A stretch of DNA of 64,000 nucleotides from Desulfovibrio sp. (GCF_018379785.1 NZ_JAGZUV010000011.1:17788-81787); one strand, 5' to 3'; shown: positions 28,380 to 54,950, counted from the first letter of the stretch. Numbers and translations are program-made. Notes: generated by a model from the letters alone, not told the origin.

Positions 28380-28562
28380 CTAGGCTCAGCCCTCATTAAA
28401 ACGCCGTCCGCGAAAAACTGAATTTTTTCGGGCAGCAAGGCGCAAAGGAGAAACCGGGCGAAGCTGTATTAAATATACCGCGAGGTCAATTTCTTTTTTG
28501 CAACGCAGCTGCACGGAAAAGGCGGCTTTGCAGCAGGCACTTTTAATGAGGACTGAGCCTAG
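28380..28562. repeat. 183-bp segment bounded by 22-bp inverted repeats CTAGGCTCAGCCCTCATTAAAA / TTTTAATGAGGACTGAGCCTAG; same 18-bp terminus also at 913..930
   Basis: Direct reading; 21/22 complementarity; the CTAG of each copy supplies/abuts the stop codon of smpB (914..916) and of the GT2 gene (28559..28561). Confidence 0.65.
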
Positions 28563-29476
28563 AATCTGCGGATGGAGCGGGAGACATCCAGGCGGGATGC
28601 AATACGCCGCAGAATGCGCGTGACTCCTTCCTCGCGCGCCGCCAACGCCATACGCGCATTCAGGCGCAAGGCGGCGGGCAGCAGCAGAAAGGCCAGCGCG
28701 CCCCATTGCCTTCGCCGGGCCAGTTCGCGAGCGAACAGACGGCGGAAGCCGCGCCCCATGCGGCGGAATTCCTCAAGGTAGCTGAAGAGTTCCACCTTGT
28801 GGTGCCAGCTTTTGGGGTGCAACCGCCAGCGGGTGAGTTTTTCCGGCACAAAAGCAAAGGGCGCGAGCGCGGCGAGCTGGGCCCAGACCCACCAGTCCAG
28901 CCAGCGCGGCACGGGCGTTTGCAGGGAGACGCGGCACAGCAGGCCGGTTCTGGCCATGGCGCAGGAAAAGGTGGGAATTTTGTTTTCCAGCAGAAAGGGG
29001 CGCACATCACAGTGCGCCGGGGCAAGCCGGGCATGCCAGCGCATGACGCGCGGCACATAGCCCTCAAACCAAGCGGTATCGGCTCCTGGCATGACAAAGG
29101 GCGCAATGTCGTTGCAGACCACGCCCGCGCCGTTCTTTTCCGCCGTTACCAGGCGTCGTTCCAGACAAAGAGGATGCCAGAGGTCGTCGGCCTCCAGAAA
29201 GGCCGTCCAACGGCCCCTTGCCTCGGCCAGGGCCAGAGCCAGGGCGGCGGGCAGGCCGTGATTCCTGCCGTCCGCATGGGTCAGCACGCGCACTCTGGAG
29301 TCGCGGGCGGCAAAGCTCCGGGCCACGGCCAAGGATTGATCCGTGGAGCCGTCCTCCACCAGCAGCAGCTCGAAATCCGCCATGCTCTGGCCCAGCGCGC
29401 CGCGCAGCGCTCCCGGCAGATAGCGGGCGTAGTTGTAGCTGGGCATGATGACCGTGACAGCGGGTGCGGGAAGCAT
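28559..29476 (-). CDS. family-2 glycosyltransferase (copy 1 of an inverted duplicated pair)
   Basis: MLPAPAVTVIMPSYNYARYLPGALRGALGQSMADFELLLVEDGSTDQS... GT2 DxD-type N-terminus; ~90% nt identity to 54036..54950. Confidence 0.85.
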   Translation of the reverse strand: MLPAPAVTVIMPSYNYARYLPGALRGALGQSMADFELLLVEDGSTDQSLAVARSFAARDSRVRVLTHADGRNHGLPAALALALAEARGRWTAFLEADDLWHPLCLERRLVTAEKNGAGVVCNDIAPFVMPGADTAWFEGYVPRVMRWHARLAPAHCDVRPFLLENKIPTFSCAMARTGLLCRVSLQTPVPRWLDWWVWAQLAALAPFAFVPEKLTRWRLHPKSWHHKVELFSYLEEFRRMGRGFRRLFARELARRRQWGALAFLLLPAALRLNARMALAAREEGVTRILRRIASRLDVSRSIRRF

Positions 29477-29512
29477 GGACCACCTCCGGAAAGGGATGGC
29501 GAACCGGGAACT

Positions 29513-30259
29513 TCAGGCTTTGCGGGCGCCGACGCGCGCCGGATTTGGTGCCGGACAAGACGGATCGTCCAGCAGGGCTTGCAGATGCCGCATGCTCCGC
29601 CAGTGGGCAAAGAGTATTTCCAGCAGGCCGTTTCGGGCCCAGCGGGACAGAGTGGCGTCGGGCAGGGCCATGACCTTGTCCCGTCCCGCCACACGCAGGC
29701 CGCTCACAGCGCGTTCTTTTCCGTCGGCGCGGATAGTGACGCTCTGCTCCGCCAGCACGCCGCTCAACCCCAGTTCGGCCAGGGCCTGTTCGTTGTCCCT
29801 GTGGCGCTGATGCTGGTTGCCCAGCGTGGCTGTGATGCGCCGCAAAAATTCCGAGGGTTCGCCGTCCTCGCCATAGAGCGGCAGGCCGTCCTTCCGGCGG
29901 AAGTGCGGGGCATCCTCGTCCACGGCCAGAACAACTCCCGGCAATTTCTCCTGTTCGGGGGAAGGCGCGGCAATCAGCGAAAAAGGATGGTTAGCCGCGT
30001 ACAGAGGCAGATAAGGAGCGGTCCAGCGGCCCCGGGCGTCCACGAATATATTTTTTCCGCCCAGGCCCAGCAGGGCATAGGGAATGGCTGACCCCGCGGC
30101 AGGAAAGGCTATGGCGAAGCAGCGGGACGCCTCCACGGCTTCAAAGCTCAGAAGGGGTATGCTGTTCATGGCCGAGGTGAAGGAATAGTCCTCCAGGGTG
30201 CCGAAGGTCAGGGCCGCATGCCTGGTCTTGCTGAGAGGAACGATGCGCGGCTGGGACAT
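29513..30259 (-). CDS. SapC-family protein (start at ATG 30259 within ORF 29513..30397)
   Basis: MSQPRIVPLSKTRHAALTFGTLEDYSFTSAMNSIPLLSFEAVEASRCFAIAF... matches the SapC pattern found next to type I secreted S-layer genes. Confidence 0.6.
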   Translation of the reverse strand: MSQPRIVPLSKTRHAALTFGTLEDYSFTSAMNSIPLLSFEAVEASRCFAIAFPAAGSAIPYALLGLGGKNIFVDARGRWTAPYLPLYAANHPFSLIAAPSPEQEKLPGVVLAVDEDAPHFRRKDGLPLYGEDGEPSEFLRRITATLGNQHQRHRDNEQALAELGLSGVLAEQSVTIRADGKERAVSGLRVAGRDKVMALPDATLSRWARNGLLEILFAHWRSMRHLQALLDDPSCPAPNPARVGARKA

Positions 30260-30417
30260 GGAATCTCCTGCGAGCAGCGAAAGTGCCGTTTTTGAGGACG
30301 CAAGGAATGAAAAAGAGCTGCCGCCCCGCCTGGCACAGCGACGACGGCAGCCCCGCTGTCGCGGCCGGGCTCCCGCCCAGCAGGGCGGGAGCGGCACGCG
30401 ACCTTCGAGTTGAAGGA

Positions 30418-33400
30418 TTAGGCGGCGATGATATCGCCGAGGGCGATGGAATTGTCCTCGCCGGTGCTGAGGGTGCCGAGCAGATTTACAGTGTCGCCGG
30501 CGTCAATCGTGCCGTCGGCCGAGGTGACCGAGAACACCCAGTAATTGCCGTCATCTGCGGCGGCGTCGGCGTTCTGGACAACCACGATGTTCTTGCCGGC
30601 GGTGAGGCCTGTAATGCCGTCAATACCGTAATGGGCATTCGTGGCGTCAATGACCTTGGCGGTGTCGAGCACTTTGCCGTCCAGTCCAAGGCCGGTGGCG
30701 TCGATTTTGTCGATGCCGGTCTGGAAGCCCAGGACGGTGTCGTCGTCGAACGCGCCGTTCACCACCAGGGTGTCGAAAGCGGTGTGGGACGAATTCACGT
30801 TCAGGGCGATGACGTCGTCGCCGGCAGTCAGATCAACAGTGTTCATGCTGGTGGTGCCGAGATCGGTACCGGCGACGTCAGCGGGAGTGCCCTTCACGAG
30901 GACGGTGTCGTCGCTGATATCTCCGCCCGCGGTGGCGCCGGTGATGGTGAAGGTATAGGTCCCGTCCGCGTTCTTCGCCCCGGCAACCGTCAGGCCGGTG
31001 TGGTCAGCCACCAATTCGGTCTGCATGGCGGTGGCCATGGCAGTTTCGTCGGCACCGCGCTCGAAAGTATAGGCTTTGCCGTTGTAAACGACCGTATAGT
31101 CGTCGGTAGCGGCTCCGGCACCAAAGTCCAGAGCAGCGGTGAGCGCCTGAACTTCAGGAGTGCCGCCAGTCCCCTGGGTCTGGATATCCAGCGCGCTGTC
31201 GACAGCCTCCACGCCGTTGACGGCCAGGTCGGAATCATTATTGCCGTTGGCATAAACGCCGTTAGCGCCGATCGTCACATTCGTGCCGGCGAAGTCCACA
31301 CTCAGATCAGTGGCAGCAAATGCACCGTCAACCAGGGATTCCACCAGCAGGGAGTGCCCCATGCCGTCCTTGGCCACCAGCAGAGCGCCCAAGGTCGGAT
31401 CCTCATTGATTGCCGCGATGATGGCGTGATTGACGTCATCCACGCTGATGCCTTTCTGGCCAGCGGCCACATCCAGCGTCACCTCGGAGGTGATGCCGTT
31501 GAATGTCACCGTAACGGTCACGGTGCCGGCAGTGGCCGAGGTGATTTCAAGGCCCACGGCATTAGTGGCCACGACTTCGTTCTGCAGGGGCTGCGCGCCG
31601 TCGGGACCGGCCTTTATGAAGGTTTCGGCCGTATTGTTGGCGCCGAACACGAAGACCGCATTCTGGTCGTGGGCGTTCTGCCCCACATAGACCTTGTCGT
31701 CGCCCACGCCGTCATTCACTTTCACCGCGCCGTTGCCCCAGAACCACACTTCGTCATTGCCCGCGCCCAGGTCGATGGACACATTGTTCAGGGCGATCTG
31801 GTTCAGTAGACGGCTGCCGGTAAGATTCTCAAAGGAGAAGTTCACCAGGTCGTTGCCGGCGTTGGTCTGGATGTCCAGCTTGAAGTCGCGGTCGGCGGCG
31901 ATGCCGGCGTTGACCTTCATGTTCAGGGTGTCGTCGTTTGTACCCAGATAGTAGCGGAAATCGCCGCTGGGAGCGTAGTTGCTGTACATGGTGTTCAGGC
32001 CGTCCACATCCGCCATATACTTGTCCAACGCTGTATCCGTGAGCTGCGCACCGATGTTCACCTTGCCGTTCATCTCGCTGGCATCGAAGACCTTGACGTT
32101 GGTCAGACCGTCGGTGCTCAGCAAGCGGGGCACGTTCATCCAGTGGGCGAGTTCCGCGTCGGTGGCGGGATTGACGCCCGTGTTGCCCAGAGCTTCAACA
32201 TCAAGCGGCGTGCCGATGAAAAGATTGCCGTCGTCGCCGGCGCCGTTCACCGCGCCGTTCTTCACCGTGACCAGACGCAGGGTGTCGTTGGTGGAGGACA
32301 GGCTGGACAGCCACGACCCCTTGTCCACGACCACGTCGAAGCGCTCCACGCCGCCGCGGCCCGCATTGGAGCCAATGACCAGATGGCCCGCTTCGCTGCC
32401 TAAGATGGAATCATCGGGCAGGCAGGGGCTGGCGTCATCCCACTGCACGCGGCCCACGTTGTCCAGCTCCACATTGGTCTGGATCAGGGGGCAGGTCGTC
32501 TGCGCGTCGTCGCTGAACGTGGCCGAAGTGGAGTTGGTCGGCGGAAGGCCGTTGGAGGCGATCCAGTTGCCGCCTTCCAGGGCCCCCTGATCGGAGGAGA
32601 TCACGATCTTGTTGCCCTGGACGGTTTCGCCTTTGTGATCGCCGATGCCCACCACGGCCGTGAACACATCGCCCTTGGTGACGGTCAGGCCCAGGCCGGA
32701 CAGTTCGGAATCGGCATCAATGGCGGCCTGCATCTGGGCGACCAGTTCGTCATAGGAGGGGGAATCGTCGGTGGTATGGTTGTACGCGCCGAAGTTCAGC
32801 GTGTACTCCTTGCCGTTGAGCGAGAACTTGAAGCCAGTGTATGGGTTGTCATACAGAGGATCAGCATGGCCGCCGTCAACCACGGGCAAAGCGCCCACCG
32901 TGTCGATGAGCTGCGCATACAGCGTGCCCGTGGTCTGGCTGTCCTCGCGCGCGAGGTGTTGCGCATCAAAGTAAACCGAGAAATCCACGCCGCCGGGATC
33001 AGTATTGGAGAAGCGGACCGTGGTTTCCGTGGATTTGTGGCGCACGTCCTCAACACTAAGGGAGCTGCGGCTGTTGTCCGAACCGAGGGTCAGCATCTGG
33101 CCATCGGCCAGGTGCACATTTTCGGCGTCGAAGTAGGCGTTGGTCAGATTGCCGCCCGTGCCGCCGGTAGCCTGCTGAACGTGGAAGAGAATGGTTTCCA
33201 CATTTTGGATTTCAGGCGAAATGACGTCGTCCGTCCTGCCGCTCTCGATGTCGGCATACAGGGTGTCGTGGCCGGCCTGGCCGTCAATGTAGTCACGGTC
33301 GTCAAGGGTTCCGACTTTGGCGTTGATATAGTCGTTGCCCGCAGTGCCCTGAATTTCGTCGTCGCCGGTGGTGAGCTGATAGGTGTTGCCGAGGGTGGCG

Positions 33401-33939
33401 GCGTTCACGGAGAGGCCCTCGGCCTTGCCGTACATTTCATAATGCTGGATGGGGTCAAGCCCGGCGTCCTGGAAGTCCTTCACCAGCATTTCCATGGTGT
33501 AGGCAGGGTCGCCCTTCTGCATCTCGGCCAACTTGGCATTCATGTACGCGGCAGTGTCAAAGCTCTGTGAAGGATTGTGGAAAACCCCCTTGGAGGCAAA
33601 GCTTTCGGCCCAGTACTGGTGGAAGTGCTCATACGGGCTCATGCCCGCCTGGTTCATGGCCACAAGCATGGAATTGGCATTCTGGCCGGTGATGTTGGTC
33701 CGTTCGTAGTAGTCCGCAGCCTTGTTGTACAGGTATTCGGAGCTGTCGAACCAGGAGCTGGCGCTCACGCCTTCAGCATTGCCGTAGTCCAGAAAATGCC
33801 TGTACAGGCCTTCCGCGTCCGTTGAATAGCCGGCGGCATCGAAAGCGGCTTTCAACTGCAGACTATCCCAACCTTCGCCCATCATCTGGAGCTTATTATT
33901 GAAATAGACATCTTTCTCAAACCAAGAAGGTACAGCCAT
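30418..33939 (-). CDS. giant secreted surface protein, paralog 1 (putative S-layer/array protein; T1SS substrate candidate)
   Basis: 1173 aa from MAVPSWFEKDVYFNNK...; three ~55-aa N-terminal repeats (WF..Y..NK..AG.S.YEHF..YG..EG), long Gly/Asp/Thr-rich beta-repeat body, no N-terminal signal peptide, C-terminus ...GFQTGIDKIDATGLGLDG... resembling T1SS C-terminal target domains; GGAGG RBS. Confidence 0.7.
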   Translation of the reverse strand: MAVPSWFEKDVYFNNKLQMMGEGWDSLQLKAAFDAAGYSTDAEGLYRHFLDYGNAEGVSASSWFDSSEYLYNKAADYYERTNITGQNANSMLVAMNQAGMSPYEHFHQYWAESFASKGVFHNPSQSFDTAAYMNAKLAEMQKGDPAYTMEMLVKDFQDAGLDPIQHYEMYGKAEGLSVNAATLGNTYQLTTGDDEIQGTAGNDYINAKVGTLDDRDYIDGQAGHDTLYADIESGRTDDVISPEIQNVETILFHVQQATGGTGGNLTNAYFDAENVHLADGQMLTLGSDNSRSSLSVEDVRHKSTETTVRFSNTDPGGVDFSVYFDAQHLAREDSQTTGTLYAQLIDTVGALPVVDGGHADPLYDNPYTGFKFSLNGKEYTLNFGAYNHTTDDSPSYDELVAQMQAAIDADSELSGLGLTVTKGDVFTAVVGIGDHKGETVQGNKIVISSDQGALEGGNWIASNGLPPTNSTSATFSDDAQTTCPLIQTNVELDNVGRVQWDDASPCLPDDSILGSEAGHLVIGSNAGRGGVERFDVVVDKGSWLSSLSSTNDTLRLVTVKNGAVNGAGDDGNLFIGTPLDVEALGNTGVNPATDAELAHWMNVPRLLSTDGLTNVKVFDASEMNGKVNIGAQLTDTALDKYMADVDGLNTMYSNYAPSGDFRYYLGTNDDTLNMKVNAGIAADRDFKLDIQTNAGNDLVNFSFENLTGSRLLNQIALNNVSIDLGAGNDEVWFWGNGAVKVNDGVGDDKVYVGQNAHDQNAVFVFGANNTAETFIKAGPDGAQPLQNEVVATNAVGLEITSATAGTVTVTVTFNGITSEVTLDVAAGQKGISVDDVNHAIIAAINEDPTLGALLVAKDGMGHSLLVESLVDGAFAATDLSVDFAGTNVTIGANGVYANGNNDSDLAVNGVEAVDSALDIQTQGTGGTPEVQALTAALDFGAGAATDDYTVVYNGKAYTFERGADETAMATAMQTELVADHTGLTVAGAKNADGTYTFTITGATAGGDISDDTVLVKGTPADVAGTDLGTTSMNTVDLTAGDDVIALNVNSSHTAFDTLVVNGAFDDDTVLGFQTGIDKIDATGLGLDGKVLDTAKVIDATNAHYGIDGITGLTAGKNIVVVQNADAAADDGNYWVFSVTSADGTIDAGDTVNLLGTLSTGEDNSIALGDIIAA

Positions 33940-34045: not shown

Positions 34046-34075
34046 TGTAACAATAGGGTACACCCTATTGTTACA
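34046..34075. other. 30-bp palindromic candidate recombinase crossover site A (TGTAACAATAGGG-TACA-CCCTATTGTTACA)
   Basis: 13-bp perfect inverted arms around an asymmetric 4-bp centre; 108 bp upstream of giant paralog 1 start and ~200 bp upstream of the serine recombinase gene. Confidence 0.55.
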
Positions 34076-34279
34076 AAATTAGGAATTCTATTTTATAATC
34101 AAATTATATACTATTTTTTCATTTTTTATGAAAAAACAAATAGAGTTAAAAGAAATTATACATAATACAAAAGATGAGATATACAAATGAAAAAGACAGC
34201 CTACTTCACATTGCATATCAAATGAGATGACAGAGCATCTCGTTATATCCTCATGGAATAACGCATGCAGGAGAAAACT

Positions 34280-34924
34280 ATGGATATAGGCTACATCAGG
34301 GTCAGCTCATATGATCAACATACAGACAGACAACTGGATGGAGTCCATCTTGAAAAGATATATACGGATATGATCAGCGGCAAAGACACGAACAGACCTG
34401 AGTTGCAGAAGTGCCTTACGGCGTTGCAGCGTGGTGATACACTACATGTCCACAGCATCGACAGATTGACGAGAAATTTGCAGGATCTGCTTCTGCTGCT
34501 TTCGGAAATGGCCGAAAGGGGCGTCACAGTGCGGTTTCACAAAGAAAAACTGACTTTTTCAAGCGACAGCTCACCCTTTCAAAAACTGCACCTACAGATT
34601 ATCGGCGCTGTGGCTGAATTCGAACGGGCTTTCATCCGTGAGCGCCAGCGGGAAGGCATTGCCATTGCCAAGGCGAAGGGTAAATATAAAGGGCGCAAGC
34701 GTGCGCTTTCAGCGGAGCAACTGGAAGAAATTTCCCGGCGCATTGCAAGAGAGTCCGTGAGCCGCATCGCGGAGGAATATGGGGTGTCCCGCCAGACCAT
34801 CTACAGGTCGCTGCGCCAGAACGAGGAAGGCGGCATGCGCTCCGTCCGGGATTCCCGGAAAGGCTGTACGGGCCTGCGCCATGAAGCCCCGTGGCATGAT
34901 CGGGAGCGACGAACCCATACCTGA
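34280..34924 (+). CDS. serine recombinase (resolvase/DNA-invertase family)
   Basis: MDIGYIRVSSYDQHTDRQLD...GDTLHVHSIDRLTRNLQDLL... catalytic Ser motif and C-terminal HTH (GVSRQTIYR); AGGAG RBS; gene GC clearly lower than surroundings. Confidence 0.85.
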   Translation: MDIGYIRVSSYDQHTDRQLDGVHLEKIYTDMISGKDTNRPELQKCLTALQRGDTLHVHSIDRLTRNLQDLLLLLSEMAERGVTVRFHKEKLTFSSDSSPFQKLHLQIIGAVAEFERAFIRERQREGIAIAKAKGKYKGRKRALSAEQLEEISRRIARESVSRIAEEYGVSRQTIYRSLRQNEEGGMRSVRDSRKGCTGLRHEAPWHDRERRTHT

Positions 34925-35466: not shown

Positions 35467-37242
35467 ATGCAAGATTTTCTGCGCTCGTGCCGGTATTTCT
35501 TCGGATATGCCTTCTTCTTCAGCATGTTCGTCAATATTCTGCAGCTGACATTTTCCATCTACATGCTGCAGGTTTATGACAAAGTGCTGACCAGCTACAA
35601 TCTTTCGACACTGACGGTCATCACCATCGCCGCCGTCATCGCGCTGGTGGTCATGGCTTTGCTGGAGTGGATCCGTTCGCGCCTGCTGGTACGGGCCGGC
35701 ATTGAGTTCGACCACATGCTCAGCCGCGACGTGCTGAAGCTGAATCTGCAAAACGCGGGAGCGCCTGCCGGCAAACCTGCCGAGCAGAACGGCAATTTGC
35801 GCGACGTGCAGAGCCTGCGCAATTTTCTGGGCGGCAACGCGGTATTCGCGTTTTTCGACGTGCCCTGGATGCCCATCTATTTCGCCCTGATTTTCATCCT
35901 GCATCCTTCCCTGGGCATGGTGGCTGTGGGAGGCGGCCTGCTGGTCCTGATTCTGGGCGTCCTCACCGAGCGGCTGACCCGCAAGCGTCTGGAAGCGGCA
36001 AGCCATCTCAATGCCCATTCCTTCAATCTTACCGGCGCGGCCATGCGCAACGCCAGCATCGTGCGCTCCATGGGCATGATCGGCAATGTCACGGCGCGCT
36101 GGGGCAAGGTCAACGACCTGATCATCCGACTCCAGACGCGGGCCAGCCGCAGCGCGGGCCTGATCCACGCGGTCAGCAAATCCCTGCGGGTCGGCCTGCA
36201 AGTGCTGATCTACGCCGTGGGCGCGTATCTGACGGTCATGCACGAATCCACGGCCGGGGTCATGATCGCCGCGTCCATCGTCATGGGCCGCGCGCTCGCG
36301 CCCATTGATCAGGCCATGGGCAGCTACAAGCAGTCCCTGGAAGCCCGGGGAGCCTATGGCCGCCTGAAGACCCTGCTCGACGCCCCGCGCCCCCTCCCGG
36401 CCATGGACCTGCCGGAACCGCAGGGCGAGCTGACCGCCGAAAATCTCTATTTCGCCGCCGGGGGACGGCCCATCCTCAAGGGGATATCCTTCCGCATGCC
36501 CGCCGGGCAGTCCCTGGCCATTATCGGCCCCAGCGCTGCGGGCAAGTCCACCCTCTGCAAACTGCTGTTGAACATCTGGGAGCCCACCAGCGGCAAAGTG
36601 CGCATCGACCGCGCGGATATGGCTTCCTGGGATTCGGAAAAGCTCGGCCCTTTTCTCGGCTATCTGCCGCAGGATGTGGAACTGTTTTCCGGCAGCGTGG
36701 CGGAAAATATCGCCCGGCTCGGCGAGGTGGATTCCGCCAGGGTCATCAAGGCGGCCCGGATGGCGGGCGTGCATGAAATGATTCTGGCCCTGCCCAAAGG
36801 CTACGACACCCAGATTGGCGACCAGGGCGCGGCCCTTTCCGGCGGACAGCGCCAGCGCATCGGTCTGGCGCGCGCCCTGTACGGCGATCCGCGCGTCATC
36901 GTGCTGGACGAGCCCAACTCCAATCTGGACGAAGAGGGCGAGGCCTCGCTGGCGCAGGCCGTGCTGCATCTCAAGCAACAGCACACCACTCTGATTCTGG
37001 TAACCCACAAGCCCAATATCCTTTCCATTGTGGACAACATCATGATGGTGCAGGACGGGCAGATCGCCCTGTGCGGGGCGCGCCAGGAAGTGCTGGCCAA
37101 GCTGGCGGAGCTCCAGAAACAGCAGCGCGAGGAAGCGGCCAGAGCCAGACTGTTGCGGGAGGCGCTGGAAAGGCGCAAGGCCGTCTCGCCGGAAAATCCC
37201 GATGAACCGCAAAGCGGCGACGGGGAGCCTGAACATGCGTAA
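35467..37242 (+). CDS. type I secretion system ABC transporter (permease/ATPase, HlyB/PrtD family, no C39 peptidase domain)
   Basis: 591 aa, 6 TM then Walker A GPSAAGKST, signature LSGGQRQRIGLARAL, Walker B VIVLDEPNSNLD. Confidence 0.9.
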   Translation: MQDFLRSCRYFFGYAFFFSMFVNILQLTFSIYMLQVYDKVLTSYNLSTLTVITIAAVIALVVMALLEWIRSRLLVRAGIEFDHMLSRDVLKLNLQNAGAPAGKPAEQNGNLRDVQSLRNFLGGNAVFAFFDVPWMPIYFALIFILHPSLGMVAVGGGLLVLILGVLTERLTRKRLEAASHLNAHSFNLTGAAMRNASIVRSMGMIGNVTARWGKVNDLIIRLQTRASRSAGLIHAVSKSLRVGLQVLIYAVGAYLTVMHESTAGVMIAASIVMGRALAPIDQAMGSYKQSLEARGAYGRLKTLLDAPRPLPAMDLPEPQGELTAENLYFAAGGRPILKGISFRMPAGQSLAIIGPSAAGKSTLCKLLLNIWEPTSGKVRIDRADMASWDSEKLGPFLGYLPQDVELFSGSVAENIARLGEVDSARVIKAARMAGVHEMILALPKGYDTQIGDQGAALSGGQRQRIGLARALYGDPRVIVLDEPNSNLDEEGEASLAQAVLHLKQQHTTLILVTHKPNILSIVDNIMMVQDGQIALCGARQEVLAKLAELQKQQREEAARARLLREALERRKAVSPENPDEPQSGDGEPEHA

Positions 37243-38620: not shown

Positions 38621-38622
38621 GC

Positions 38623-46399: not shown

Positions 46400-46456
46400 G
46401 CCGGAAACGCGGCATGGCACAACGGCCAGGCGGATAAAAATCTGGAGAGTACCCCC

Positions 46457-47278: not shown

Positions 47279-48635
47279 TGCCGAAGCCGTCATTCGCGTG
47301 AGCGACATTGCCAAATTCTTCGAGATATACTCCAAGCCGTCGTATCGTCTCTGGCAGATGATATTCCGGGGCAGACGGCGTTTTTATGAGCCGTTCTGGG
47401 CGCTGCGGGACATTTCCTTCACTGTGGGGCGCGGAGAGTGCGTGGGAGTTATCGGCCGCAACGGCGCGGGCAAAAGCACGCTGCTCCAGATCATTACCGG
47501 CACGCTCGCCGCTTCATCGGGATGCGTCGACGTGAAAGGCCGTGTGGCCGCCCTCCTGGAACTGGGCAGCGGCTTCAACCCCGAATTCACGGGCCGCGAG
47601 AACGTCTACCTCAATGCCTCCATCCTCGGCCTGACGCGGGAAGAAACAGACTCCCGCTACGACGACATCGTGGCCTTTGCGGACATCGGCGACTTCATCG
47701 ACCAGCCGGTCAAAAGCTACTCCAGCGGCATGGTGGTGCGCCTGGCCTTTGCCGTGGTGGCCCATGTGGACGCTGACGTGCTGATCATCGACGAGGCCCT
47801 GTCTGTAGGCGATGCCTTTTTCACGCAGAAATGCATGCGCTTCCTGCGCCGCTTCATTGCCGAGCGCACCGCGCTTTTCGTCAGCCATGACACTGCCGCC
47901 GTAAACAGCCTGTGCAACAGGGCCATCCTCATGGAACACGGGCGGATAAAGCAGATGGGCAGACCCAAGGACGTGACGGAAACCTATCTGAAAGATATGT
48001 ATGAAGCGCACCAAGGCTCCAGTGCCCCCGTCGTCGAAACATCAGGGGCGACTCCGGCGGAGAAAGACGCGGAGGACAGGGCGCGCGCCTTCACGCCCGA
48101 GGATTTCCGCGACATGCGCGCGGACCTCATCAATGCCAGCAACTTGCGCAATGACATTCAGGTCTTCGTCTTCAACGAACGCAGCGCCGACTTTGGCAAA
48201 AAGGGCGTCACCATCACCGGAGCCGCCCTCCTGGACGGCAGGGGACGCCCACTGAACTGGGTGGTCGGCGGCGAACCCGTGTCTCTGCAAATCACCGTGC
48301 GGGCACACAAGGACATCTTCAGCCCCATTATCGGTTTTTTTCTCAAAAATCGTCTCGGGCAACATATCTTCGGGGACAATACCTTTCTGGCCTACCGGGA
48401 AAAACCCGTGTTGCTGCGCCGGGGGCAAAGCGCTCGTGCGCTTTTTTCCTTCGTCATGCCCATCCTCGAAACCGGAGACTACAGCTTTTCCATTGCCGTG
48501 GCAGAAGGCACGCAAGTAGAACATATCCAGCATGACTGGAAGCACGACGCCCTGGTTCTGAAATCGGTCACCACCAGTTGTCATACGGGCATGGTGGGCA
48601 TCCCCATGCAGTGCATCAGCCTCAACGTCATCTAG
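47268..48635 (+). CDS. wzt: polysaccharide ABC transporter ATP-binding protein (Wzt-like) with C-terminal carbohydrate-binding extension
   Basis: 455 aa, Walker A GRNGAGKST, signature YSSGMVVRLAFA, ~190-aa C-terminal extra domain. Confidence 0.85.
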   Translation: MCSDAEAVIRVSDIAKFFEIYSKPSYRLWQMIFRGRRRFYEPFWALRDISFTVGRGECVGVIGRNGAGKSTLLQIITGTLAASSGCVDVKGRVAALLELGSGFNPEFTGRENVYLNASILGLTREETDSRYDDIVAFADIGDFIDQPVKSYSSGMVVRLAFAVVAHVDADVLIIDEALSVGDAFFTQKCMRFLRRFIAERTALFVSHDTAAVNSLCNRAILMEHGRIKQMGRPKDVTETYLKDMYEAHQGSSAPVVETSGATPAEKDAEDRARAFTPEDFRDMRADLINASNLRNDIQVFVFNERSADFGKKGVTITGAALLDGRGRPLNWVVGGEPVSLQITVRAHKDIFSPIIGFFLKNRLGQHIFGDNTFLAYREKPVLLRRGQSARALFSFVMPILETGDYSFSIAVAEGTQVEHIQHDWKHDALVLKSVTTSCHTGMVGIPMQCISLNVI

Positions 48636-48643
48636 GAGCCGTC

Positions 48644-49516
48644 ATGGAGTTCACAGGAGAACGTTTTGTCCCCCAATGCCAGGGAGAAATTGCGGCCGAA
48701 CACTACCATCGCTATTTTTTCGCTTCGGGTTTCGTCTCCGGCAAGCGCGTCCTGGATATCGCCTCCGGTGAAGGCTACGGTACGCATATTCTGGCGCAAT
48801 CCGCCGCGCACGTCACCGGCGTGGACATTTCCCCGGAAGCCGTGGCCAACGCCACCCAAAAATACGCCGGAGACAGGATCGCCTTCCTTCAGGGCAGCGC
48901 GGCCGTCATTCCCCTGCCCGACGACGCCGTGGACGTGGTAGTCAGTTTTGAAACGCTGGAGCACCTGTGCGAGCAGGAAGCTATGCTCAGCGAAATCAGA
49001 CGTGTTTTACGGCAGGACGGCCTGCTGATCATCTCCACGCCCAACAAGAATCTGTACAGGCGCGACAATGATCGCTTCCATGTCAGGGAGTTGTTCCGGA
49101 AGGAATTCGTTGACCTGCTCAAAAACCGCTTCGCCCATGTTTCCCTGTTGGGGCAGAAGGTCATGTACGGTTCACTGCTGAGCGGCACGGACGGCGAGAC
49201 CTTACTGCTCCGCCAACGGGAAGAAGACGGCGCTGTGGAGCGTATGCCTTTTACGGAACAGGCCAGATATTTCATAGCCCTTGCCGCTAACGGACCGCTG
49301 CCGCCCACTCAGAGTTCGTTTTTCGACTACCCTCTGGAAAAAAGCGATCTGACGGCGCAACTCGCAGAACTGCAAGAACGCCATAACGCGGCGCAAGCGC
49401 GCCTTGAGGCCGTGGAAGCGGCATACACCGCCGTCCTTGCCTCGCGCTCGTGGCGCGCCACGGCGCCGCTGCGTCGCCTGCGGCATCTTCTCAAGGGGAA
49501 ACGGAGCAAAAGCTGA
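48644..49516 (+). CDS. class I SAM-dependent methyltransferase with C-terminal coiled-coil
   Basis: MEFTGERFVP...VLDIASGEGYGTHIL...GVDIS... motif I; AGGAG RBS; C-terminal heptad-like ...LTAQLAELQERHNAAQARLEAVEAAY... Confidence 0.75.
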   Translation: MEFTGERFVPQCQGEIAAEHYHRYFFASGFVSGKRVLDIASGEGYGTHILAQSAAHVTGVDISPEAVANATQKYAGDRIAFLQGSAAVIPLPDDAVDVVVSFETLEHLCEQEAMLSEIRRVLRQDGLLIISTPNKNLYRRDNDRFHVRELFRKEFVDLLKNRFAHVSLLGQKVMYGSLLSGTDGETLLLRQREEDGAVERMPFTEQARYFIALAANGPLPPTQSSFFDYPLEKSDLTAQLAELQERHNAAQARLEAVEAAYTAVLASRSWRATAPLRRLRHLLKGKRSKS

Positions 49517-49555
49517 ATCTGAAACGCCCCGGTGGGGACAATGAGGAGAACATGC

Positions 49556-50110
49556 ATGGAAGTGGAACGCACCGCCATTGACGGCGTCATCATCATAAAA
49601 CCGGACGTGCACGGCGACGCACGCGGCTTTTTTGTGGAAACCTGGCAGCGGGACCGCTATGCCGACATGGGCATTGCCATGCCTTTTGTGCAGGACAATC
49701 ATTCCCGTTCCTCGCGAGGCATTTTGCGGGGCATGCACTTTCAGCGCAAACACCCGCAGGGCAAGCTCGTCCACGTTTCCCTGGGCGCGATCTTTGACGT
49801 GGTGGTAGACATCCGCCCCCATTCGCCCACCTTCGGGCAGTGGACCGGCGTGACACTGGACGCGGGACAGCAGCATCAGCTCTGGCTTCCCCCGGGCATG
49901 GCGCACGGTTTTCTCGCCTTGAGCGACACCGTGCATCTGCACTACAAATGCACGGATTTTTACCACCCCCAGGATGAAGGCTCTCTCCGGTGGGATGATC
50001 CCGACATCGGTATCGCCTGGCCATGCACCGCGCCCATGCTTTCCGTCAAGGACGCCGCCGCACCCTTCTGGCGCGAGGTACGGCAATCCCTTCCGGCGCG
50101 GACGCGCTGA
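49556..50110 (+). CDS. rfbC: dTDP-4-dehydrorhamnose 3,5-epimerase
   Basis: MEVERTAIDGVIIIKPDVHGDARGFFVETWQ...GMHFQ... canonical RmlC. Confidence 0.9.
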   Translation: MEVERTAIDGVIIIKPDVHGDARGFFVETWQRDRYADMGIAMPFVQDNHSRSSRGILRGMHFQRKHPQGKLVHVSLGAIFDVVVDIRPHSPTFGQWTGVTLDAGQQHQLWLPPGMAHGFLALSDTVHLHYKCTDFYHPQDEGSLRWDDPDIGIAWPCTAPMLSVKDAAAPFWREVRQSLPARTR

Positions 50111-50350: not shown

Positions 50351-50380
50351 CTCACCAATAAAGTGTACCCTATTGTTACA
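50351..50380. other. candidate recombinase crossover site B (..GTGTACCCTATTGTTACA), inverted relative to site A
   Basis: 50363..50388 gtgtaccctattgttacatttttacg matches the reverse strand of site A (gtgtaccctattgttacattttcacg) at 25/26 positions; 139 bp upstream of giant paralog 2 start. Confidence 0.55.
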
Positions 50381-50518: not shown

Positions 50519-53500
50519 ATGGCTGTTGAAATTCCTACTTGGTTTGAGGAAAAAAATTATCTCAATAATAAAGCGGTGCAGTTGAACGCCACCAAGTTCA
50601 ACGACAAAACCGATTGGACTGCGGATTCGGCGTTGGCCGCCATTGAAGCCGCGGGCATGAGCGCCTACGAGCATTTCGTCGCCTACGGCAATGTCGAAAA
50701 CATCAGCCCCAATCCCATGTTCAACGTGGCGGAATACCTCGCGGCCAAGGCGGCACAGCTCAACAGCGACCCTGACGAGCCAAAATCCGACTGGACCGAG
50801 GCCGACGTACTGGCGGCATTCAACGACGCCGGTCTGACTGCTTGGGATCATTACACACAATACGGCATGTATGAAGGGATCAACCCCTCCAATCAATTTG
50901 ACGCCAGCGCCTACTTCACAGCCAAGCTGGCGCAGCTTCAGGCTGCCGAGCCGGATAAGGGCTGGACAGAAGAATCCATGCTGGACGCCTTTAAGGAAGC
51001 GGGTCTCAACCCCTTGGAACATTATGCCCAGTACGGCAAGGATGAAGGCCTTTCCGTTCCCCCGGTGCCGTCCGACGAACGGGTCGTCACGGATTTTGAT
51101 CCCTACACTCCTTCCAATCCGGGCGAAACTTTCACCCTGACCACCGGCACCGACCACATTACGGGCACGGCCAACGACGACGTGGTCAACGGCGTGGCCT
51201 CCTCCCTGACCGCCGACCGCACCCTGAACAGCGAAGACGTCATCGACGGCGCGGAAGGCAACGACACTCTGAATGTGGCCATGCAGGGCAATTTCTCCGG
51301 CTTCACCACCGGCTCCATGACCAACGTGGAAAAAGTGGTGCTGACCAACGAAGGCAACATCGCCCGCAGCTTCTCGGCCAAGGGCATTGACGGTGTGAAT
51401 ACCTGGACCCTGAACGACACGGGCGCGGCCGTCAACCTTACCGACCTTTCCGCCGCGGGCGCCACCGTCAATGTGCAGGGTCTCAAGGCGGGCCCGACCA
51501 GCATCGGTTTTACTGCTGACGCCGTAAAGGGCGACAACGACTCGCTGACCCTGGGCCTCAACAATGTGGGCACCGCCAAAGACGGCGACACAGCCGCCAA
51601 GCATGTGGCCATTACCGCCAACGGCATTGAAAATCTGGCCGTGAAGGCCACGGACGACAACTATGTGGATCTGAGCGCCGCCGCTTCTAAAACCGTAACC
51701 GTCTCCGGCTCCGGCAATCTGGATGTCAACAATGTAGCGGCGGGTATGACCAGCTTCGACACTTCGGCCCTCAGCGGCAATGTGACGGCTGATCTGCACG
51801 CAGCCACCGGGCTGGCGATCGTCAAGGGAGGTTCCGGCGACGACACCATTACGGTAACCAACCTTGCCGCCAACGCCGTTATTGAAGGCGGAGCCGGCAA
51901 TGACAGCCTGATCCTGCAAGGCGTCACCAGTACTCTGCAACCCACCATGTCCGGTTTTGAGAATATTACGGCTGATGGCGGCACGCTCACCCTTTCCGGC
52001 AAAAACATGTCCGATTTCAATTCTCTGACCGTGAAGAATGGTGCGCAGGTGACTTTGGCCAATATGGACGCCTCTGCCTTTACCGTCACCGCGTCGGGTT
52101 CTACGGCTGGTTCCGTTTTGTTGAGCGACGCCACCGCGCTTACCTACAATACGGTAAGCAGCAAGACCGACAAAACCTCGGACAGCATCAGCACCACAGT
52201 GACCGCCTCCAAGGCCACCTCGGCCACGGTCAACGTGGGCGAATACACCGAGGTGAACGGGACGCTGAACTTTGGCGCGGCTGTGGATGTGGCCGTGAAT
52301 GTGGCCAGCGGTCTGGGCAGCGACGGCAAGACCGAAATGACCTCTTTTGGCGGTACCCTGACCGCGAACAAAGCCCAGAGTTTTACCGTTAATGCGGAAG
52401 GTCTGCTGGAGGTTTCCACCTTCAATGTGGACGCGGCCAGTTCCGTGCTGGTGGATGCCGCCCAGGGCAGCACGGGCGTGGTAAAAATTCAGGCGAGCAA
52501 GGCCACTGACGTGAGCATTACCGCCGGCTCGGCTATGGCTATCACCGGCAGCTCTTTCTCCAGCGCCCAGAACGTGACCCTGGCCGCGAACAAAGGGCAT
52601 CTCTCCGGCGGCGTGGCACTGGACGCCGTCAACCAGCTCACCCTTTCCGGCGCGGATGCGGCCTCGCAGATGACGCTGGGTGTTCTGGGCTCTTCCACAC
52701 AGGAATACGGCATCACAGTGGACGCCAGCGGCCTGAAAGGCGGGTTGGTACTGGGTAATACTGACGCCGGAACCGGTGATGTGGCCTTGAATCTCGTCGA
52801 CGTGACGGGTGCCGCCGTTGTCGGTACGGTGGACGGCAACAATGTGACCATCCACGCCGCCCAGCTCGGCACGACCACTCTGGGCGCCATTACCGCTACC
52901 GGAGATGTGAACATTGACGCCATGGGCGTGTTGGGCGGCAATGCGGCAGCCGCTGCCTTTACAGCAGGCGCTATTGTTGCCGACAAGGCCATCACGGTGA
53001 ACTTCGACGGCAGCAGCGATATGGCCTTCGGCGCGCTGACTGCCGACACCGTGAACCTGGACGCATCCGGCTATCTGGGTGCCATCACTAACAGCAACGG
53101 CGCCGTCGTTGATGCAGCCATCGGCATGATTACGGCGGATACGGTCGTCATCAAGGGTTCAGAGATCGGCGCGAACACCTTTGGTTCCGCAGCCAATACG
53201 GACAACTTCATAACGGCCGATACCCTTACCTACACCGGCGGCCTGGATGTGGATACGGTATACCTTACCGGCAAGTCCGGCCCGGATATGAATGTGCGCC
53301 TCGACACCGGCGCGGGCAATGACATTGCGAGCCTTACCGCCATTAGCTCCACGACCAAAATCACGGTCACCGGCGATATGGGCGGCGACAACGGCGACGC
53401 GATTAAGGTGGACGGCTCTGCTTCCACCAACGAGATCAACATCAATCTCAGCGGCCTGACCGGTTACAGCACGAGCGACCTCTCCGCAAAAGCTGCCGGC

Positions 53501-53923
53501 AGTGCTTTGGTTGGTGGATCTGGTGTAGACTCTCTGACTGTGGGTGGTGCAACTGCTGCTATCACTAAGGGCGTATTGGAATATAGCATGACCGGCGGTG
53601 CCGGAATTGATACGTTCAACGTAGTTGCGGCTGTTACCACTGGGATTAATCATGTTACGATTACCGACTATGAAAGCGGCATCGACATTCTGAAAGGATT
53701 TTCCGGTGAGGATAGCTATAGCAATGCTAATGACGCCGCTGCTGCCCTGCAAACCTTCTTGGGTGGTACGATTTCAGCAAGCGACATTCAGTACACGGTA
53801 GGTAACGAAGCAATTGTTTATAATGGCAATACCTATCTGCTGAGTGTCGATACGGCGGCTGATGTGACAAGCATAGTCGAACTTCACGGAGTTCAAGACC
53901 TGGATGCGTCGATTAGCGCTTAA
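50519..53923 (+). CDS. giant secreted surface protein, paralog 2 (putative S-layer/array protein; T1SS substrate candidate)
   Basis: 1134 aa, MAVEIPTWFEEKNYLNNK...; same triple N-terminal repeat module as paralog 1, Gly/Thr/Asp-rich body, no signal peptide, C-terminal ...DYESGIDILKGF... T1SS-like target domain; GGAGG RBS. Confidence 0.7.
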   Translation: MAVEIPTWFEEKNYLNNKAVQLNATKFNDKTDWTADSALAAIEAAGMSAYEHFVAYGNVENISPNPMFNVAEYLAAKAAQLNSDPDEPKSDWTEADVLAAFNDAGLTAWDHYTQYGMYEGINPSNQFDASAYFTAKLAQLQAAEPDKGWTEESMLDAFKEAGLNPLEHYAQYGKDEGLSVPPVPSDERVVTDFDPYTPSNPGETFTLTTGTDHITGTANDDVVNGVASSLTADRTLNSEDVIDGAEGNDTLNVAMQGNFSGFTTGSMTNVEKVVLTNEGNIARSFSAKGIDGVNTWTLNDTGAAVNLTDLSAAGATVNVQGLKAGPTSIGFTADAVKGDNDSLTLGLNNVGTAKDGDTAAKHVAITANGIENLAVKATDDNYVDLSAAASKTVTVSGSGNLDVNNVAAGMTSFDTSALSGNVTADLHAATGLAIVKGGSGDDTITVTNLAANAVIEGGAGNDSLILQGVTSTLQPTMSGFENITADGGTLTLSGKNMSDFNSLTVKNGAQVTLANMDASAFTVTASGSTAGSVLLSDATALTYNTVSSKTDKTSDSISTTVTASKATSATVNVGEYTEVNGTLNFGAAVDVAVNVASGLGSDGKTEMTSFGGTLTANKAQSFTVNAEGLLEVSTFNVDAASSVLVDAAQGSTGVVKIQASKATDVSITAGSAMAITGSSFSSAQNVTLAANKGHLSGGVALDAVNQLTLSGADAASQMTLGVLGSSTQEYGITVDASGLKGGLVLGNTDAGTGDVALNLVDVTGAAVVGTVDGNNVTIHAAQLGTTTLGAITATGDVNIDAMGVLGGNAAAAAFTAGAIVADKAITVNFDGSSDMAFGALTADTVNLDASGYLGAITNSNGAVVDAAIGMITADTVVIKGSEIGANTFGSAANTDNFITADTLTYTGGLDVDTVYLTGKSGPDMNVRLDTGAGNDIASLTAISSTTKITVTGDMGGDNGDAIKVDGSASTNEININLSGLTGYSTSDLSAKAAGSALVGGSGVDSLTVGGATAAITKGVLEYSMTGGAGIDTFNVVAAVTTGINHVTITDYESGIDILKGFSGEDSYSNANDAAAALQTFLGGTISASDIQYTVGNEAIVYNGNTYLLSVDTAADVTSIVELHGVQDLDASISA

Positions 53924-53951
53924 GCTTCTTTAAATTCAACTCCTAACGCAA

Positions 53952-53986
53952 GGCCCCGCCCCCCATCGGGGGCGGGGCCTCTTTTT
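53952..53986 (+). terminator. rho-independent terminator downstream of giant paralog 2
   Basis: GGCCCCGCCCCccatcGGGGGCGGGGCCtcttttt. Confidence 0.8.
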
Positions 53987-54035
53987 CCGCACTCCGCATC
54001 CGCCGTCACGCGGCGTCCCTTCCGGGAGATCCGTC

Positions 54036-54950
54036 ATGTCCGCTCCCGTTGTTACGGTCATAGTGCCCAGCTACAACTACGCCCGCTACTTGCCGGGCGC
54101 GCTGCGCGGCGTGCTGGGCCAGAGCATGGCGGATTTCGAGCTGCTGCTGGTGGAAGACGGTTCCACGGATCAATCCCCGGCCGTGGCCCGGAGCTTTGCC
54201 GCGCGCGACTCCAGAGTGCGCCTGCTGACCCATGCGGACGGCAGAAATCACGGCCTGCCCGCCGCCCTGGCTCTGGCGCTGGCAGAAGCAAGGGGCCGCT
54301 GGACGGCCTTTCTGGAGGCCGACGACCTCTGGCATCCCCTGTGTCTGGAACGCCGTCTGGAAACAGCGGAAAAAAACAACGCGGGCGTGGTCTGCAACGA
54401 CATTGCGCCCTTTGCCATGCCCGGCGCCGATATGGCCTGGTTTGAGGGCTATGTGCCGCGCGTCATGCGCTGGCATGCCCGGCTTGCCCCGGCGCACTGC
54501 GATGTGCGCCCCTTTCTGCTGGAAAACAAAATTCCCACCTTTTCCTGCGCCATGGCCAGAACCGGCCTGCTGTGCCACGTCTCCCTGCAAACGCCCGTGC
54601 CGCGCTGGCTGGACTGGTGGGTCTGGGCCCAGCTCGCCGCGCTCGCGCCCTTTGCCTTTGTGCCGGAAAAACTCACCCGCTGGCGGTTGCACCCCAAAAG
54701 CTGGCACCACAAGGTGGAACTCTTCAGCTACCTTGAGGAGTTCCGGCGCATGGGGCGCGGCTTCCGCCACCTGTTCGCCAGCGATCTGGCCCGCCGCGGG
54801 CAATGGGGCGCGCTGACCTTTCTGCTGCTGCCCGCCACAATACGCCTGGCCGCGCGTCTGGCATTGACGGCACGTGAGGACGGGCTTGTGCGCGCCTTGC
54901 AGCGTATTTCCGGGCGGCTGGACGTCTCCCGTTCCATCCGTAAACTCTGA
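54036..54950 (+). CDS. family-2 glycosyltransferase (copy 2 of inverted duplicated pair)
   Basis: MSAPVVTVIVPSYNYARYLPGALRGVLGQSMADFELLLVEDGSTDQS...; ~95% aa identity with 28559..29476. Confidence 0.85.
   Translation: MSAPVVTVIVPSYNYARYLPGALRGVLGQSMADFELLLVEDGSTDQSPAVARSFAARDSRVRLLTHADGRNHGLPAALALALAEARGRWTAFLEADDLWHPLCLERRLETAEKNNAGVVCNDIAPFAMPGADMAWFEGYVPRVMRWHARLAPAHCDVRPFLLENKIPTFSCAMARTGLLCHVSLQTPVPRWLDWWVWAQLAALAPFAFVPEKLTRWRLHPKSWHHKVELFSYLEEFRRMGRGFRHLFASDLARRGQWGALTFLLLPATIRLAARLALTAREDGLVRALQRISGRLDVSRSIRKL

Follow-up and report, generated by a model that had tools for sequence, protein, structure and literature searches.

When two near-identical genes sit in opposite orientation at the two ends of a gene cluster, do they serve to flip the DNA between them, or does the repeat have another meaning? 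This question is raised by a surface-protein locus in a 64,000-nt stretch of DNA from a human-gut Desulfovibrio sp. (NZ_JAGZUV010000011.1:17788-81787; hereafter the window, with positions counted from its first letter). Here, two genes for family-2 glycosyltransferases (GT2), named GT2-L and GT2-R, bracket two outward-facing genes for large proteins, big1 and big2, together with the secretion and polysaccharide genes that lie between these. The original prediction for this DNA held that recombination between the GT2 copies could invert the entire locus, and that each GT2 might serve the large protein next to it. We arrive at a different joint reading, to which we assign a probability of about 0.7: the two genes are old inverted paralogs which are kept ~90% alike by gene conversion, the locus shows no sign of flipping between them, and the GT2 proteins most likely act on surface polysaccharide.

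A single long inverted repeat encloses the locus

The 64-kb window contains one long inverted repeat. Its arms (28561-29484 and 54025-54948) are 924 nt long, 90% complementary and spaced 24,540 nt apart, and their homology is limited to the coding sequences (CDS), starting ~10 nt before the start codons and stopping at the stop codons, with unrelated flanks on either side. Calling of open reading frames (ORFs) confirmed both GT2 genes at their predicted coordinates; a GGAGG resembling a ribosome-binding site precedes the ATG of GT2-L. The two genes, and a core segment within each, are as follows.

28559..29476, minus strand: GT2-L, a 305-aa family-2 glycosyltransferase; left repeat arm; terminal gene of the big1-SapC-GT2 unit
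54036..54950, plus strand: GT2-R, its 304-aa paralog; right repeat arm (54025-54948), which bounds the variable big2 cassette as its conserved flank on the right
28770..29071, minus strand: homogenised core of GT2-L (CDS nt 406-707), without fixed L/R differences and with polymorphisms in common with GT2-R
54438..54739, plus strand: homogenised core of GT2-R, the partner of 28770-29071

Since the pair is present again in independent assemblies, we consider it neither a chance finding nor an assembly artefact. Both products are recognized by the Pfam family Glycos_transf_2 (PF00535; cutoff 23.3), GT2-L with 91.5 bits (E 7.5e-26) and GT2-R with 96.5 bits (E 2.2e-27). Pairwise alignment bore out the nucleotide identity of ~90% that had been estimated by eye (827/915 CDS positions, 90.4%), whereas at the protein level the copies proved to be 90% identical (273/304 residues) rather than ~95%. 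This identity is strongly mosaic, with 5 differences in CDS nt 421-720 as opposed to 37 in nt 781-915.

The closest genome-contig matches to GT2 were a 939-bp contig at 78% identity and a partial contig at 86%, and the GT2-L allele of the window is one residue off the alleles on record, an exact look-up being empty. Two records are of note in their own right. A 939-bp contig of Desulfovibrio sp. SGI.169 (L001, NZ_JBNPLS010000074.1) consists of a GT2 gene alone and is probably a collapsed repeat, and a contig binned as 'Bacillota bacterium' (L002, JAEWTL010000117.1) bears a Desulfovibrio-like big2-GT2 pair and is probably mis-binned.

Sequence exchange between the two copies

Diagnostic sites, defined as positions fixed in L copies, fixed in R copies and differing between the two classes, number 74 in the GT2 genes, and none of them (0/74) lies between CDS 405 and 708. 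At CDS 468, 545, 624 and 688, L and R copies of different strains even have polymorphisms in common. Exact runs between the copies reach at most 83 nt in the window and 248 nt in strain LOUY, with a within-genome range of 76-248 nt.

Purifying selection could be invoked to explain so similar a core, and can be ruled out because the synonymous sites of that segment have diverged in a sister lineage. That is, synonymous divergence (dS) across the ~300-nt core is 0.044 (3/70) between the two window copies, as compared with 0.76 for the SAYO pair of L and R copies; orthologs of different lineages give 0.36-0.51 (range 0.21-0.51 across both analyses). With the indel zone, the neighbourhood of an insertion in the right SAYO copy, left out, the values are 0.042 (2/49) for the window copies versus 0.497 (18/50) for the SAYO copies. 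Compared with its flanks, and with the same segment elsewhere, the core is tenfold less diverged. The copies differ most at their 3′ ends, where nonsynonymous divergence (dN) reaches 0.18.

The sister lineage also speaks to the age of the pair. SAYO22 scaffold_273 carries both copies in the same layout, with GT2 proteins 82-83% identical to GT2-L, and the J lineage carries the locus as well. The duplication had already taken place when at least two of the examined lineages diverged; for a third, partial data imply both copies. In nucleotide identity, GT2-L of the window is closer to its own paralog (90.4%) than to its SAYO ortholog (85.1%). Taken together, the presence of both copies in the SAYO lineage and this excess of paralog over ortholog identity argue that the duplication is old and that similarity has been kept by exchange.

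A natural case of transfer is given by strain N234 (L023), where the gene in the left slot has the L type at both ends (diagnostic sites 4-21 and 900-918) but the R type at 57-885, with the exception of site 123. R alleles of the k322 type are themselves L-type at sites 12-21 and 123, which places the 5′ end of the N234 tract between CDS 7 and 57; the R-type tract is about 850-890 nt long. Across CDS 17-899, the N234 left copy differs from k322_R at 7 of 883 positions, and the neighbours of this converted gene (SapC, big1 and tig) are unchanged. On this point the original prediction was right: with exact runs of 76-248 nt and natural sequence transfer between the arms, the GT2 copies are indeed recombination substrates.

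We propose that the arms undergo repeated homologous, RecA-type exchange which is resolved without crossover, that is, gene conversion. Such conversion, which is presumably RecA-dependent, would copy tracts of ~0.3 to 0.9 kb from one arm to the other, and its recurrence would account for a pair that is ~90% alike. The crossover product was not seen among the contigs described below and would leave expression as it is.

Gene order at the arms is constant

As a check for inversion, we used contigs from independent gut metagenome assemblies, about 40 of which span a junction, from three lineages. All ~40 junction-spanning contigs show the parental order of the window and none shows the inverted order. 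On the left, the order lon-clpX-clpP-tig-GT2-SapC-big1-recombinase was found in 10 resolvase-centred contigs, in the SAYO22 sister lineage and in further look-ups; on the right, RmlC-big2-GT2-HTH_3-thiL-like-rpoA was found in L025, L026, L029, L035 and L046-L050. Neither tig-GT2-big2 nor HTH-GT2-SapC junctions occurred among the contigs spanning an arm, and further look-ups of SapC, big1 and big2 aimed at inverted arrangements returned parental contexts only.

Inversion of the 24.5-kb interval between the GT2 arms, as originally proposed, is therefore not supported by the population contigs, nor would it re-link any promoter. The arms are the 3′-terminal genes of two outward-facing operons, so a crossover between them would leave both GT2 genes intact and the links between promoters and genes unchanged; such an event would not be a switch.

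Two large secreted proteins and a variable cassette

The genes next to the arms on the inner side encode the large proteins of the locus.

30418..33939, minus strand: big1, a 1173-aa putative type I secretion substrate
50519..53923, plus strand: big2, a 1134-aa putative type I secretion substrate; hypervariable cassette

These 'giant' genes, as they had been called, encode 1173-1177 and 1134 aa. Their products have only an N-terminal domain of ~250 aa in common (33% protein identity), the homologs of which are all unnamed. Neither protein has a match in Pfam, NCBIfam or PDB sequences, and no similarity to SapA, to RsaA or to another named family could be detected in their sequences. A resemblance of big2 to RsaA through the motif 'LTTGTD..GTANDD' is unsupported at sequence level, since phmmer searches of big1 and big2 against all PDB sequences were empty at E<=1. 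The symmetric, duplicated organization that had been ascribed to the locus holds for the GT2 genes and for this one domain of the large proteins, but not for the rest.

Between strains, the two genes behave differently. The big1 protein measures 1173 aa in 10/10 strains with resolvase-centred contigs, and alignment of three related contigs showed the gene to be collinear, with 95.8-98% identity of the DNA. In contrast, big2 occurs in alleles of 872, 902, 915, 918, 1134 and 1144 aa (L025, L035 and L046-L049 among the contigs), so that a secreted surface protein varies here in a serotype-like manner. Strains cease to be homologous at ~50375-50381 and are so again from ~53937-54034, right after the big2 stop codon; these bounds make GT2-R and a terminator the conserved right flank of the cassette, and RmlC and a short site its left flank. 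GT2-R would then serve as the right homology arm when big2 cassettes are exchanged between strains.

A serine recombinase and its candidate sites

The short site upstream of big2 has an inverted counterpart between big1 and a recombinase gene.

34046..34075, no strand: S1, a perfect 14-2-14 palindrome (TGTAACAATAGGGT-AC-ACCCTATTGTTACA) and candidate recombination site, located in the gap that separates big1 from the recombinase gene
50353..50380, no strand: S2 (CACCAATAAAGT-GT-ACCCTATTGTTACA), upstream of big2 and inverted relative to S1; left boundary of the big2 cassette
34265..34924, plus strand: small serine recombinase of 219 aa with a Resolvase domain (PF00239, E 2e-36) and a C-terminal HTH_7 domain (PF02796, E 9e-9)

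In NCBIfam, the recombinase comes closest to the Mpi-type master invertase (NF009949), but with 62.4 bits where the cutoff is 272, the enzyme falls outside the Mpi equivalog. Its position is conserved in all examined Desulfovibrio lineages that bear a large secreted-protein gene. S1 and S2 match exactly over 22 nt and at 91% over 33 nt (E 7e-8), in inverted orientation and with plus-strand centres of AC versus GT. The pair brackets 16.3 kb with the recombinase, secretion and polysaccharide genes, while big1 and big2 both point outward. Both sites are kept in three lineages, and the outer half-site co-varies with the adjacent cassette.

Is the palindrome the site at which this enzyme acts? Scanning the metagenome collection for the core CAATARRGTGTACCCTATTG, we obtained 94 site-bearing loci (L059-L152); in 41/80 loci, a small serine recombinase gene is present with the core 69-195 nt upstream of it. 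Those recombinases that come from outside Desulfovibrio are 31-46% identical to the window enzyme, and in one low-G+C contig group (41-43% G+C) the homology between contigs begins exactly at the site. In addition, a lineage with a single big gene (L037-L040) has two inverted GGGT-GT/AC-ACCC cores, at about 4824 and 5627, around a 184-aa recombinase gene; this Hin-like element of ~0.8 kb sits directly upstream of the large gene and has the same orientation in 4/4 contigs. From the cores upstream of recombinase genes, the breakpoint in other taxa and the paired cores of the single-big-gene lineage, it follows that the palindrome is very probably the cognate recombination site of the recombinase. 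These comparisons also suggest a widespread recombinase family with a conserved site, AATAGGGT-GT-ACCCTATT, that we matched to no described one. The core CAATARRGTGTACCCTATTG as such is found in many unrelated, mostly low-G+C gut-metagenome contigs.

What, then, might be inverted? One proposal, which we rate as not quite an even bet, is that the inverting unit is the 16.3-kb S1-S2 block, whose inversion would put either big1 or big2 beside the AT-rich promoter region on the recombinase side. The 22-nt inverted match with its AC and GT centres, the conservation of the sites in three lineages, the recombinase-linked cores with a crossover breakpoint and the paired cores just upstream of a large gene in the single-big-gene lineage all speak for it. 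Inversion by S1 x S2 recombination is expected to create two junctions, J1 (...CACCAATAAAGTGTACCCTATTGTTACA followed by the big1 leader) and J2 (...TTTTGTAACAATAGGGTGTACCCTATTGTTACA followed by the big2 leader). One contig, L105 (OJQL01005812.1; nt 1-785 and 753-4349), does join the RmlC side across the site to big1, with both halves matching parental contigs from its own lineage at 99% identity, as would be expected for such an event. It ends 56 nt short of the big1 stop codon and has a shared stretch of 26 nt at the join. Another contig, L058 (Logan ERR10101914_83332), starts at 50363, exactly the first base common to S1 and S2 (GTGTACCC...); this start could be an assembly-graph branch point if the sample held two left contexts, the alternative being a single-nucleotide polymorphism between co-resident strains. 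Finally, a promoter-like site at 34132-34103 points through S1 to big1.

Several points speak against the S1-S2 inversion. L105 is the sole recombinant junction found, as opposed to ~42 parental junctions (about 15 at S1 and 27 at S2), and the reciprocal junction, of the recombinase side with big2, occurs in none of the 94 site-bearing loci. L105 would also be compatible with a copy of big1 in the big2 slot, or with a rare mis-join at the 26-nt stretch. Frequent swapping would tend to blur the contrast between a big1 of constant length in 10 strains and a variable big2. Moreover, the palindrome could be an operator, and the promoter is a consensus match only.

In its full form, the proposal is that of a sap-like surface-protein system in a prevalent gut Desulfovibrio, with the recombinase flipping a 16.3-kb block that comprises its own gene and the secretion and polysaccharide genes, so as to alternate a big1 of constant length and one of many interchangeable big2 cassettes at one expression site; we regard this as possible rather than probable. 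In such a switch, the GT2 duplicates would stay in place at the outer ends, and whichever unit is expressed would come with the same glycosyltransferase. As for why two GT2 copies are retained at all, any reason is one that we infer. Be that as it may, flipping of any kind is more likely at S1/S2 than at the GT2 arms, and the recombinase with S1/S2 and the hypervariable big2 is a more interesting lead than the GT2 pair itself.

Beyond the recombinase gene, at about 35008-35030, there is a weak third core (CATAGAGGT-GT-ACCCCATTAAAA). We did not find this core in the sister lineages, and inversion of the ~1-kb segment between S1 and this core was rejected, the segment being collinear in 13/13 contigs (12 conspecific ones at 99.4-100% and SAYO at 93.5%). 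We treat the third core as chance or a relic.

A probable role of the GT2 proteins in surface polysaccharide

The aspartates D45, D96 and D97 of the GT2 proteins (the D of 'EDGSTD' and the DXD in 'EADD') are invariant in 44 homologs, both copies included. An AlphaFold model of GT2-R (predicted local distance difference test, 93.9) has a GT-A Rossmann-like fold with a C-terminal helical extension, which Foldseek matched with a probability of 1.00 to SpsA, K4CP, RmlT, TarP and CgT, at sequence identities of 15-19%. The nearest solved structures are enzymes that decorate or extend cell-surface glycans, namely CgT/GalT1 (5hea), the TDP-rhamnose transferase RmlT, TarP/TarS, SpsA and K4CP. No NCBIfam equivalog was found for GT2 at cutoff.

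Genomic context is more telling. In the P0054 Desulfovibrio lineage, whose GT2 is 53% identical, one large gene is followed by GT2 and then by HAD-RgpF, Wzm and Wzt. In the P0046 lineage, with a GT2 of 49% identity, the gene heads an rmlB-rmlA-rmlC-rmlD...Wzm operon, and no large-protein, SapC or recombinase gene was found near it. Because GT2 precedes or heads polysaccharide genes in both relatives, the family-wide partner appears to be the rhamnose-polysaccharide pathway. Judging from these sequence comparisons, we favour a role in surface polysaccharide, at slightly better than even odds, over dedicated protein glycosylation. Both GT2 proteins would act in the cytoplasm on the rhamnose-containing polysaccharide which the locus encodes and which is exported by an ATP-binding cassette (ABC) transporter. 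This polysaccharide is the predicted acceptor, and we presume it to be the actual substrate; the activity could be that of an adaptor or side-chain transferase, and each copy would be co-expressed with one large-protein gene.

The alternative, that each GT2 glycosylates the adjacent large protein in the cytoplasm before type I export and that the copies are specialised for their partners, seems unlikely to us. It is true that GT2 follows a large gene in every Desulfovibrio arrangement seen, L002 included, that CgT/GalT1, the foremost of the structural neighbours, has the glycan of a glycoprotein as its target and that the divergence between the two copies is highest at the 3′ ends (dN 0.18, as given above). 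However, strain N234 has an R-type allele in its left slot next to an unchanged big1, and GT2-R is near-invariant (96-100% identical across strains) while completely different big2 alleles of 872-1144 aa interchange beside it. The 49%-identical relative, furthermore, is the leading gene of an rml/polysaccharide operon that has no gene for a large protein in its vicinity, and a strong terminator stands between big2 and GT2-R. The R-type allele in N234, the constancy of GT2-R and the 49% relative argue against the original suggestion that one GT2 is dedicated to each large protein.

Weighing the joint reading

That the ~0.9-kb arms drive a recurrent, possibly functional RecA-mediated inversion of the whole 24.5-kb locus strikes us as improbable. 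With 924 nt at 90% identity and exact shared runs of 76-248 nt, the arms offer enough for homologous recombination, and they demonstrably recombine. Many short-read contigs also stop within them (L001, L027-L034, L042-L045 and L051-L057), as heterogeneity in orientation could also bring about. These ends are wholly explained by the arms being a repeat, though, and no heterogeneity is needed; none of the about 40 junction-spanning contigs from independent samples was inverted; and the 3′-terminal position of the arms leaves promoter links and both GT2 genes unaltered.

Recent duplication alone, without exchange, can be dismissed almost entirely: an overall identity of 90% could in principle reflect the age of the duplicate, but the sister lineage already has both copies, orthologs (85-92%) are more diverged than the window paralogs in the core, core divergence is tenfold lower, and the left copy of one strain is a mosaic.

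The joint reading of old paralogs, gene conversion, no locus flipping and a polysaccharide role has several points against it. Regarding conversion, the right copy of N234 was not recovered, and import from the R copy of another strain would look the same. Regarding inversion, consensus assemblies are blind to a minority orientation within a sample, and inversion between the arms at low frequency would escape them. As to function, the structural matches stand at 15-19% identity only, the best of them, CgT/GalT1 (5hea), is an enzyme that lengthens the O-glycan of a secreted adhesin, and the location of GT2 after a large-protein gene in all three Desulfovibrio arrangements would fit protein glycosylation too. 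Formation of a surface layer (S-layer) by the large proteins, or their binding of polysaccharide, is a proposal only, and they have no detectable similarity to SapA or RsaA.

Other genes of the locus

From left to right, the locus begins with tig, GT2-L, SapC and big1 (all minus strand), followed by the 30-bp palindrome and the small serine recombinase (plus). The next genes are on the plus strand: type I secretion ABC protein, HlyD-type adaptor, a 344-aa protein of no known family and TolC; then a double family-4 glycosyltransferase (GT4), HAD-RgpF, Wzm, Wzt, methyltransferase and RmlC. The right end is made up of big2 (plus), a terminator-like hairpin, GT2-R (plus) and an HTH_3 gene. As a whole, the locus is bounded by tig-clpP-clpX-lon and the rpoA/ribosomal-protein operon. 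The source annotations are generic ('glycosyltransferase family 2 protein', 'beta strand repeat-containing protein', 'type I secretion system permease/ATPase', 'TolC family protein').

29513..30259, minus strand: SapC homolog, 248 aa in public assemblies (Pfam SapC PF07277, E 1.3e-46, profile positions 1-220 of 220)
35467..40892, plus strand: type I secretion operon (Pfam ABC_membrane + ABC_tran, HlyD/AprE, OEP)
35467-37242, plus strand: ABC permease/ATPase of this operon
37202-38620, plus strand: HlyD/AprE-type adaptor of this operon
38524-39558, plus strand: conserved 344-aa gene of this operon, between the HlyD-type adaptor and TolC
39555-40892, plus strand: TolC-type outer-membrane protein of this operon
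40903..50110, plus strand: genes for ABC-transporter-dependent polysaccharide (from Pfam and gene calls)
40903-43407, plus strand: double GT4 of the polysaccharide block
about 43421-46399, plus strand: HAD+RgpF of the polysaccharide block
46457-47278, plus strand: Wzm of the polysaccharide block
47268-48635, plus strand: Wzt of the polysaccharide block, with a C-terminal, carbohydrate-binding Wzt_C domain
about 48644-49516, plus strand: methyltransferase of the polysaccharide block
49556-50110, plus strand: RmlC of the polysaccharide block
53951-53980, plus strand: very strong terminator-like hairpin in the gap between big2 and GT2-R, with a 13-bp G+C-rich stem and then a T run; part of the conserved right flank

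The Pfam match establishes that a SapC gene lies between the left GT2 and the first large gene, just as the original prediction had it. The 344-aa protein has no family match in Pfam or NCBIfam. Three Desulfovibrio lineages have its gene in this same place, with products of 337-354 aa, and it may encode a fourth component of the secretion system. The hairpin has no comparable counterpart between the genes of the big1-SapC-GT2-L unit; its sequence suggests that big2 is built for high expression and that GT2-R relies on read-through or a promoter of its own.

Several observations concern strain differences and single genes. The glycosyltransferase genes after TolC (window 40903-46399) vary by strain, with one or two double-GT4 genes, or Glucos_trans_II plus GT2, in this place; strains differing in post-TolC content are L016, L019, L020 and L023, at about 16700-20660. 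Probably, the polysaccharide produced varies between strains too. In LOUY21-1 scaffold_348 (L017/L026/L050), from a strain otherwise nearly identical to the window, the HAD-RgpF fusion (992 aa elsewhere) is split into calls of 352 aa and 654 aa, which may reflect a frameshift or a sequencing error. After GT2-R (window 55013-56092), a 130-aa HTH_3 (XRE-like) gene and a 191-aa gene of no assigned function are present in all strains; if the S1 palindrome were an operator and not a recombination site, the HTH_3 protein would be a candidate regulator.

Implications

The GT2 pair shows, cleanly and in a natural setting, how inverted paralogs evolve in concert, and the repeat explains why the locus breaks in short-read assemblies of a common gut sulfate reducer. 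For annotation, a repeat of this kind alone warrants neither 'inversion of the locus' nor 'protein-specific glycosyltransferases'. Our literature searches returned no description of a Desulfovibrio locus that unites SapC and type I secretion with a pathway for O-polysaccharide, a hypervariable secreted-protein cassette and a conserved serine recombinase with paired sites, and nothing relevant on Desulfovibrio S-layers or type I secretion, or on invertible elements. If the recombinase does swap the large proteins, a gut organism would be varying its surface by a new means, namely antigenic switching with the topology known from Campylobacter fetus and a site-specific mechanism, and the S1/S2 core would be the cognate site of a widespread recombinase family.

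Comparison with known systems

Inversions between the tuf genes of Salmonella have been documented, and none of this type was seen for the GT2 pair. In other respects, tufA/tufB of Salmonella enterica (PMC5485169) resemble the GT2 genes in being ~1-kb inverse paralogs on one chromosome, with contiguous conversion tracts of hundreds of bases whose ends lie within the homology, and concerted evolution as the result. The tuf genes are ~99% identical, 762 kb apart and essential, unlike the accessory GT2 genes with their 90% identity and 24.5-kb distance, and conversion is RecA-dependent there (PMC5485169), whereas here it is read from population sequences and not measured. We consider tufA/tufB the closest described case.

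The Pfam SapC family is named after a C. fetus protein, and in this species the cassettes have conserved 5′ regions of ~600 bp, in which RecA-dependent recombination inverts a promoter-bearing segment. Conserved 5′ DNA of this kind was ruled out for big1 and big2, which share the 22-33-nt site alone. The C. fetus sap locus, with sapCDEF and the sapA/sapB S-layer cassettes (PMC4943207), is similar to ours in that a SapC homolog lies beside type I secretion genes and that outward-facing genes for large proteins with a related N-terminal domain surround these. Its repeats hamper assembly, and glycan genes beside it are thought to make the lipopolysaccharide to which the S-layer binds (PMC4943207). 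In the Desulfovibrio locus, on the other hand, the long repeats are the 3′-distal GT2 genes, a serine recombinase is present, and the large proteins have no SapA similarity.

In Lactobacillus acidophilus, the opposed S-layer genes slpA and slpB swap at one expression site by inversion of ~6 kb. The Hin/Gin/Mpi invertases (Hin: PMC3798978) share with our locus a small serine recombinase with a C-terminal helix-turn-helix, encoded beside one of two short inverted sites with a 2-bp centre. As a difference from both, the candidate segment here spans 16.3 kb and includes secretion and polysaccharide genes, and its inversion rests on one contig.

Lastly, the rsaA-rsaDE-rsaF region of Caulobacter crescentus (PMC3034196) likewise has the gene for a large, type I-secreted surface protein next to an exporter with ABC and membrane fusion protein components. 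It differs from the Desulfovibrio locus, which has no RsaA similarity, two substrate genes, SapC, a recombinase and a duplicated GT2. RsaA is anchored via smooth lipopolysaccharide in Caulobacter (PMC3034196), and on the model of C. fetus and Caulobacter we infer that the large proteins of the Desulfovibrio locus may be anchored by the polysaccharide made from the genes between them.

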